Shown here: in pieces, positions 58,598 through 59,698 of the stretch
Layout: every line of letters begins with the position of its first letter
How positions within the stretch are numbered: the stretch's first letter is position 1
Source of the DNA: Escherichia coli
Lineage (GTDB): Bacteria; Pseudomonadota; Gammaproteobacteria; Enterobacterales; Enterobacteriaceae
Length of the DNA: 64,000 nt
NCBI RefSeq assembly: GCF_003018115.1
Contig: NZ_CP027457.1
Direction: 5' to 3' (one strand)
Position numbers and translations under genes: made by a program
The notes under the pieces: generated by a model
Told to the model about the DNA's origin: nothing
Databases searched by the model: none
What the model saw: only the letters and a program-made list of their open reading frames with translations

Positions 58598-59698
58598 TTA
58601 GAACTGATAGGTAATGCCCGTTGCGACGATGTTATCGGTGCGAATATCTACGGCACGGGTAAAGTCGCTTTCATCAATCAGGTTGATTTTATAATCAACA
58701 TAGGTCGACATATTTTTGTTGAAGAAATACGTCGCACCAACGTCGATATACTCAATCATGTCCTGGTCGCCGTAGCGGCCCAGATCTCTGCCTTTCGATT
58801 TCAGGTAAGCGAGTGAGGGGCGCAAGCCGAAGTCGAATTGATATTGCGCCACCACTTCAAAACTTTGTGCTTTGTTAGAAATATAACCATCGCCATAGGT
58901 GGTCATGTTTAATGTTTCAGCGTAATTAGCTGCAAAGTAGATGTTGTTGGCATCATATTTTATACCTGTAGCCCACAGTTCTGCATTCTTACCGGAGGCA
59001 TTGAGAGGATTAGCAGCGGCTCTTTCCTGCGCATTTGTCCGATCGGATTTGGTATATACCGCACCGATACCAAAGCCATCATAAACATAAGTTGAGGAGA
59101 TACCGAAACCGTCACCGTTGGCACGCGTGTAGTCAGCACCATAAAGATGACTGTTGTCAGTACGTTCATTTTTGCCTTGATATTGCGCGGCAAAGTTCAG
59201 CCCTTCAATTAAGCCAAAGAAATCGTAGTTGCGATAGGTTGCTACACCGGTGGTACGGTATGTCATGAAGACATCTTTCTGACTCCAGGTATCGCCACCA
59301 AATTCTGGCAACATATCGGTCCATGAACCAATGTCATAGCCGACACCGTAGTTACGACCATAGTCCAGAGAGCCAAATTCACTAATTTTTAAACCAGCAT
59401 AGGCCAGACGGGTCTTGTTGCCGCGCGAGCCGTTGGCTTCATCGTTATAGCCTTTAAAATCATATTCCCAGTGACCAAAACCAATCATTTGATCATTGAT
59501 TTGCGTTTCTCCTTTAAAGCCGAGACGGGCATAAGTTTTATCACCATCGTCACGCTTATCATCAGTAAAATAACGTAGAGCGGTAACCTTGCCATAAAGG
59601 TTGAGTTTATTACCATCCTTGTTATAGACTTCGGCAGCGTGTGCTACGTTCGCAGCTAACAAACCAGTTACAACCACCGCAACTATTTTTAATTTCAT
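58598..59698 (-). CDS. yddL: Full-length OmpC/OmpF-family porin (YddL-like)
   Basis: 366-aa ORF with signal peptide ending AHA, porin beta-strand pattern and C-terminal ...GITYQF. Confidence 0.8.

Follow-up and report, generated by a model that had tools for sequence, protein, structure and literature searches.

We find that the minus strand of this Escherichia coli DNA carries an intact chromosomal gene for a general-diffusion porin, which at a probability of about 85% is the Escherichia orthologue of Salmonella OmpD, with the yddL gene of K-12 as its deletion remnant. The gene lies in a stretch of 64,000 nucleotides from contig NZ_CP027457.1 (assembly GCF_003018115.1), here called the window, and corresponds to the full-length form of K-12 yddL, to z2239 of O157:H7 and to Ec042-1601 ("ompD") of EAEC 042. 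The positions of the gene, its signals and its neighbours are collected in Table 1.

Table 1. Features of the porin locus, in window coordinates.
Feature	Position	Strand	Remarks
Porin CDS	58598..59698	-	366 aa, mature 345 aa; RefSeq WP_001613040.1, "porin OmpC"
Signal peptide, codons 1–21	59636..59698	-	from alignment with OmpC, OmpF and PhoE
5′ 281–284 nt of porin, equal to yddL	59415..59698	-	sole part of the gene left in K-12-type genomes
Segment missing from K-12	57877..59417		1,541 nt; 6-nt overlap at the junction (BLASTN)
Tyr147 codon (mature Tyr126), loop 3	59258..59260	-	beside a conserved constriction Arg
Upstream region	59699..59956	-	AT-rich; promoter and a putative 5′ UTR of ~72 nt
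Sigma70-like match	59773..59744	-	ATGTCA-18-TAAAAT; sequence match
RybB seed target, predicted	59673..59680	-	CDS +19..+26, GCGGUGGU; position as in Salmonella ompD
Salmonella MicC target position	59621..59632	-	codons 23–26; GAAGUCUAUAAC in the window vs GAGGUAUAUAAC
Intrinsic terminator	58563..58586	-	12 nt past the stop; 9-bp stem (6 GC pairs), then TTTGATTT
yddG (aromatic amino acid exporter)	59957..60838	-	conserved upstream neighbour; anchors synteny with Salmonella ompD
LRR gene 1	57169..58434	-	421-aa ORF, GC 34%; equivalent of z2240+z2241 / orf1600
LRR gene 2	55853..57106	-	417 aa, GC 33.5%; RefSeq: T3SS effector EspR1; between the porin island and narU

The coding sequence appears in the ORF listing of the window as a single uninterrupted reading frame that starts with ATG and whose product ends in ...TGITYQF. 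The Pfam profile Porin_1 (PF00267) matches residues 27–366 from its first to its last position (1–337 of 337, E = 9.9e-134), and residues 22–366 are matched end to end by the PDB chains of OmpK36, OmpC, OmpF and PhoE, with E values from 1e-126 to 1e-118. Judged by these full-length profile and structure matches, the protein is a general bacterial porin of the OmpC/OmpF/PhoE type. An earlier note on this DNA had described, without naming a strand, a complete general porin of 366 aa with a signal peptide and a C-terminal Phe, and this description holds: the frame is intact, the profile is covered in full and the chain ends in YQF. The signal peptide would be cleaved before AEVYNK, at an AxA/AE site, and the start of the mature protein resembles that of the K-12 porins in the alignment.

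The residues that shape the pore of OmpF are all kept, both the basic cluster at the constriction (K16, R42, R82 and R132) and the acidic residues of loop 3 (D113, E117 and D121). The alignment also shows the PEFGGD turn of loop 3, the latching-loop pair E71/R100 and the terminal Phe to be conserved. By homology, we suggest that Sec exports the precursor, that cleavage follows Ala21, that the BAM complex would recognize the C-terminal Phe signal when inserting the protein, and that the product would assemble as a trimer of 16-stranded β-barrels. Loop 3, with its PEFGGD turn, would fold into the barrel opposite the Lys/Arg cluster, giving a water-filled channel through which small hydrophilic solutes would pass, probably with a mild preference for cations. 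The fold and pore architecture are shared with OmpC, OmpF, PhoE and OmpN, which differ from the window porin in their loci and in their extracellular loops (loop 4 is longer in OmpC).

The earlier note described yddL as a truncated pseudogene in K-12, and this is what we find. In MG1655, yddL (b1472) comprises 291 nt and encodes 96 aa; RefSeq annotates the copy of K-12 GM4792 as "porin; incomplete; missing C-terminus". On alignment, K-12 yddL is neither full-length nor identical to the window gene, of which it represents the 5′ quarter at 99.3% identity (nt 1–284, ~26% of the gene or ~94 porin codons), and its 96-aa frame ends with a few out-of-frame codons. Upstream, the promoter region is identical to that of the window. 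The K-12 product thus reaches from the signal peptide to about the fourth strand, too little for a 16-stranded barrel.

The BLASTN comparison explains how this arose. The K-12 locus is colinear with the window from fdnG via yddG and on as far as nt 281 of the porin gene (window position 59418), where the segment missing from K-12 begins. This segment takes in the last ~820 nt of the porin gene, the intergenic DNA and the first ~560 nt of LRR gene 1, and it matches in size the 1,548-bp "O-island 62" of O157:H7 EDL933. After it, a 326-nt piece of LRR gene 1 remains, followed by a second K-12 gap (window 57550..56916), at which a 20-nt overlap joins LRR gene 1 to LRR gene 2. LRR gene 1, intact in the window, is accordingly partly deleted in K-12 and fused with LRR gene 2 into yddK/yddJ. 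As read from these junctions, K-12 yddK is a chimera of LRR genes 1 and 2, and K-12 yddL is a deletion stump. The locus has been lost in a second way as well: the entire yddG-narU interval (window 59873..55712, 4.2 kb) is absent in NRG 857C, where yddG and narU lie 272 nt apart.

We compared the gene order of the window and of locus L001 with that of C. koseri (L004/L005) and Salmonella (L006/L007). [quoted passage not shown] In C. koseri and Salmonella the same slot reads fdnIHG, yddG, porin, a GFA-domain gene, an MFS gene (smvA-like), a TetR gene, narU and narZ. The porins found there thus occupy the place of the window porin, downstream of yddG and between fdnGHI and narU-narZ, and the two LRR genes, which are paralogues with a GC content of 33–34%, stand in Escherichia where the others have GFA-smvA-smvR. 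Homology also reaches past the coding sequence: over the 260 nt that precede the start codon, several conserved blocks align with the upstream DNA of Salmonella and C. koseri.

An alternative origin has been published. Okeke et al. (2011) described z2239-z2242 as an island (orfs 1601-1599 in strain 042), carried by O157/O55:H7, phylogroup D strains and Shigella, noted a likeness between yddL and the 5′ end of z2239, and proposed a recent gain, citing a GC content of 33–36% (PMC3079680); K-12 would then carry an island disrupted by insertion of yddK. The low GC content of the neighbouring LRR genes, and their presence in place of GFA-smvA-smvR, fit such a gain. The porin itself, however, has a GC content of 44%, in the range of phoE (44.7%) and ompN (46.6%) from K-12; its slot beside yddG and its alignable upstream DNA are those of Salmonella and C. 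koseri; and K-12 differs from the window by two deletions (59417..57877 and 57550..56916) and by no insertion. We therefore consider it very unlikely that the porin was acquired horizontally together with the low-GC O-island 62, and reject the acquisition of a whole island followed by a yddK insertion; we prefer a history in which the porin is ancestral, the LRR genes were gained and K-12 underwent two deletions. Since the GC content of the porin lies within that of phoE and ompN of K-12, and since slot and upstream DNA are shared, the data indicate that only the LRR genes look acquired and that the porin is probably ancestral. It would then go back to an ancestor shared by Escherichia, Salmonella and Citrobacter and have been lost twice within E. 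coli, by a deletion of 1.54 kb in the K-12-type lineage (reported for phylogroups A/B1/C) and by one of 4.2 kb, for example in NRG 857C. Points that count against our main reading are the long Escherichia branch, the unconserved MicC site and a GC content of the porin below that of its flanks (49–50%).

The closest homologue outside Escherichia is a porin of Citrobacter koseri (77% identity), and the "porin OmpD" of Salmonella enterica is 73% identical. Among the K-12 porins, identity is 62% to OmpC and to OmpN, 60% to OmpF and 59% to PhoE, and 68% to a reconstructed NmpC. In neighbor-joining trees read as unrooted splits, OmpC, OmpN, OmpF and PhoE separate from the OmpD/NmpC-type porins in 100 of 100 bootstraps, and 96 of 100 place the window porin together with those of C. 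koseri and of the Enterobacter type. A separate clade, supported at 100%, holds the prophage NmpC/Lc proteins but not the window porin. A group that unites the seven porins linked to yddG or named OmpD, without NmpC/Lc, and that includes four database proteins (P0006, P0012, P0035 and P0047) entered as sequences, received support of only 42/100, so that the case for orthology rests mainly on synteny and on the homologous upstream DNA. We conclude on these grounds that the window gene, rather than nmpC, is probably the positional orthologue of Salmonella ompD. The earlier note had called the gene a paralog; that the porin is an additional one stands, and it is better termed the positional orthologue, in E. 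coli, of Salmonella OmpD, as synteny and upstream DNA suggest.

Database names point elsewhere. RefSeq labels the product as OmpC, the NCBIfam subfamily model "porin OmpC" scores 493.6 bits against a cutoff of 484, and several relatives carry the JGI name "outer membrane porin protein LC", which together could be taken to mean a second copy of ompC (the RefSeq/PGAP label) or a prophage-type NmpC/Lc porin. Both are highly improbable given the locus, the identities and the splits of the tree. A second OmpC copy was rejected, as the protein shares 62% of its residues with OmpC, the gene is not at the ompC-micF-rcsD locus and the split between the two types is found in 100/100 bootstraps. A prophage porin was rejected likewise: identity to K-12 NmpC is 68%, the window porin lies outside the fully supported NmpC/Lc clade, and no phage genes were found flanking it among the window ORFs or in the RefSeq annotation, whereas nmpC is carried by prophage DLP12 and, in K-12, is interrupted by IS5. 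The NmpC and phage PA-2 Lc porins are on the same OmpD/NmpC branch (66–68% identity) but have a different signal peptide. The RefSeq label "porin OmpC" is a weak family call and no sign of orthology to ompC. The exact protein is found on 432 public contigs, under the names "porin OmpC" and, as a UniRef name, "Outer membrane porin protein OmpD". Its 90%-identity cluster is represented by a LepA-like protein of 603 aa and contains Roseburia LepA members, which looks like a clustering or indexing artefact.

Among relatives in E. coli, z2239 of O157:H7 is the same gene at the same locus, with 99.2% DNA identity and three amino-acid differences; the adjacent LRR gene, frameshifted in O157:H7 (PMC3079680), is intact in the window. 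The coding sequence of strain F9792 is identical, and the surrounding 11.4 kb are 99.9% identical. We surveyed 5,426 complete E. coli genomes for the locus. At least 80% of the porin gene is present in 1,111 of them and at least 80% of the 5-kb yddG-narU interval in 1,008. About 3,150 genomes carry only the K-12-type remnant, and in about 1,150 the whole yddG-narU interval is deleted as in NRG 857C; copies that are interrupted by IS1 or partly deleted occur occasionally (H47, H52). The intact state is thus common, at about 20% of complete E. coli genomes.

Five intact alleles, each of 366 codons (window, O157:H7, Z1002, 1428 and E500002), were compared, and no frameshift was found in these five. 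Among them dN/dS is 0.02–0.14, with dS of up to 0.18 and dN of at most 0.007, from which we infer that the gene is maintained by selection rather than decaying. The suggestion in the earlier note that the strain may have an extra functional porin gains from this: besides the low dN/dS, the frame is intact, the residues of pore and trimer are kept and a terminator follows, all in keeping with a gene that is "apparently functional".

The gene probably forms its own transcription unit, framed by an AT-rich promoter and leader region homologous to that of ompD and by the intrinsic terminator. The blocks GATCACA, AAATAAT, TTAAAAAYAGT and AAGGAT are common to it and to the upstream DNA of Salmonella and C. 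koseri ompD (alignment from -260 to +130), and a Shine-Dalgarno-like AAGGA precedes the porin. We placed the putative transcription start from the 69-nt Salmonella UTR (PMC4911921). At the aligned position, the -35-like element reads TTGTTT in the window and TTGAAC in Salmonella, the former being weaker. An Rfam scan of positions 52000–64000 found no RNA family at the porin; its sole match was a SECIS element in fdnG (see below).

Two small RNAs known from Salmonella ompD were considered, RybB and MicC, for which pairing energies were predicted without a shuffled baseline and are meaningful only between alleles or species. The predicted RybB seed duplex of 8 bp contains two G-U pairs and has an energy of -13.7 kcal/mol, compared with -18.3 in Salmonella. 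For MicC, a 12-bp target in codons 23–26 of Salmonella ompD has been described (PMC3333887). The predicted MicC duplex reaches -17.8 kcal/mol in Salmonella and C. koseri and -10.0, as a partial duplex, in allele E500002; no comparable duplex is predicted for the window, K-12 and O157 alleles, in which there are two mismatches. The window porin thus appears, as far as such predictions go, to have escaped MicC control.

It could be argued that the gene, intact as it is, is effectively silent, quiescent in the manner of OmpN or NmpC and heading for loss. OmpN and NmpC are quiescent in laboratory conditions. By one or other of the two deletions, the gene has gone from about 80% of complete E. coli genomes, interrupted or partly deleted copies exist, the -35-like element is weaker than that of Salmonella and the literature yielded no report of its expression in E. 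coli. On the other hand, dN/dS of 0.02–0.14 at dS of up to 0.18 is unlike a decaying gene, the promoter blocks, the RBS (AAGGA), the leader and the terminator are kept, and five alleles are without a frameshift. We consider silence rather unlikely and favor an intact porin that would be expressed.

Salmonella OmpD (STM1572; nmpC in some annotations) is a proven abundant porin, whereas the window porin is known from its sequence. OmpD-type expression in Salmonella is abundant and is modulated by cAMP-CRP, anaerobiosis and pH. The constriction residues of the two proteins are identical, but Salmonella OmpD has 360–362 aa compared with 366 here, has the GFA-smvA-smvR genes downstream where the window porin has the LRR/EspR1 genes, and has Gln126 where the window porin has Tyr126. 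This position corresponds to Gly131 of OmpF and Lys125 of PhoE; relatives have G, Q or A, and Tyr is found in only 2 of 117. PhoE Lys125 has been reported to give anion and polyphosphate selectivity, and the bulky aromatic side chain of Tyr126 could narrow or re-tune the channel. In all, the window porin departs from the consensus of at least 90% of its relatives at 17 positions. As a separate observation, the window allele has Asn at residue 33 (mature Asn12, in strand β-1; codon 59600-59602), as does strain F9792, whereas Asp is found in the K-12 remnant, in four further E. coli alleles and in 115 of the 117 relatives.

The rare Tyr at the position of PhoE Lys125, the 17 off-consensus sites, the unusually invariant loops, the tight purifying selection and the loss of the MicC site raise the question of whether the Escherichia porin differs functionally from Salmonella OmpD, as a narrower or differently selective and differently regulated channel. 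We regard such a divergence as quite improbable. If it did hold, it would be a trait of permeability, antibiotic uptake or antigenicity for the reported carriers, such as phylogroup D strains and O157:H7, and absent elsewhere.

Several other features of the window were recorded along the way. SECIS_3 (Rfam, 84.3 bits) lies at 61652-61710 on the plus strand in fdnG, right after the in-frame TGA that ends a 195-aa ORF (61070..61657); this TGA is the expected selenocysteine codon, with its SECIS, of formate dehydrogenase-N alpha, and the gene is not truncated. Around 26600-29130, about 2.5 kb are absent from the closest genome, F9792, at the junction of the vgrG/tssI and RHS core genes, both of which are annotated as partial in F9792. 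The next ~15 kb form an Rhs region, in which ISAs1/ISEc1 copies recur alongside Rhs tip/immunity-like ORFs. Judged from the annotation of the colinear region in F9792 (offset -2573), a tnpA pseudogene (IS200/IS605) would lie at ~1060-2790 next to a gene for an RNA-guided endonuclease of the insQ/TnpB family, with a hicAB toxin-antitoxin pair at ~7200-7850.

That the porin is intact in some strains and absent from others is already known and published, and it is common. Chaudhuri et al. (2010) described Ec042-1601 as "an apparently functional ompD" absent from K-12 (PMC2808357). A literature search for a functional study of the E. coli porin (as Z2239, ECs2076 or EC042_1601) found none, the only relevant match being PMC3079680, and it likewise found no expression, proteomic or channel data for the porin in E. 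coli. Two published statements deserve comment. One equates nmpC with the ompD of E. coli (PMC3333887); the other, in a 2023 paper, regards the 96-aa YddL as a possible outer-membrane protein of four strands with a role in osmotic responses (PMC9976479). As the window gene is, on our reading, the syntenic OmpD orthologue and yddL a deletion stump, both statements look inaccurate.

These points call for caution in annotation, both with the "porin OmpC" label in RefSeq and with those parts of the small-RNA literature in which prophage nmpC stands for the ompD of E. coli. Carriers of the complete gene probably possess one general porin more than K-12, and we suggest that this extra porin could affect their antibiotic permeability, their repertoire of phage and colicin receptors and their antigenicity, given that OmpD acts as a protective antigen in Salmonella (cited in PMC2808357).
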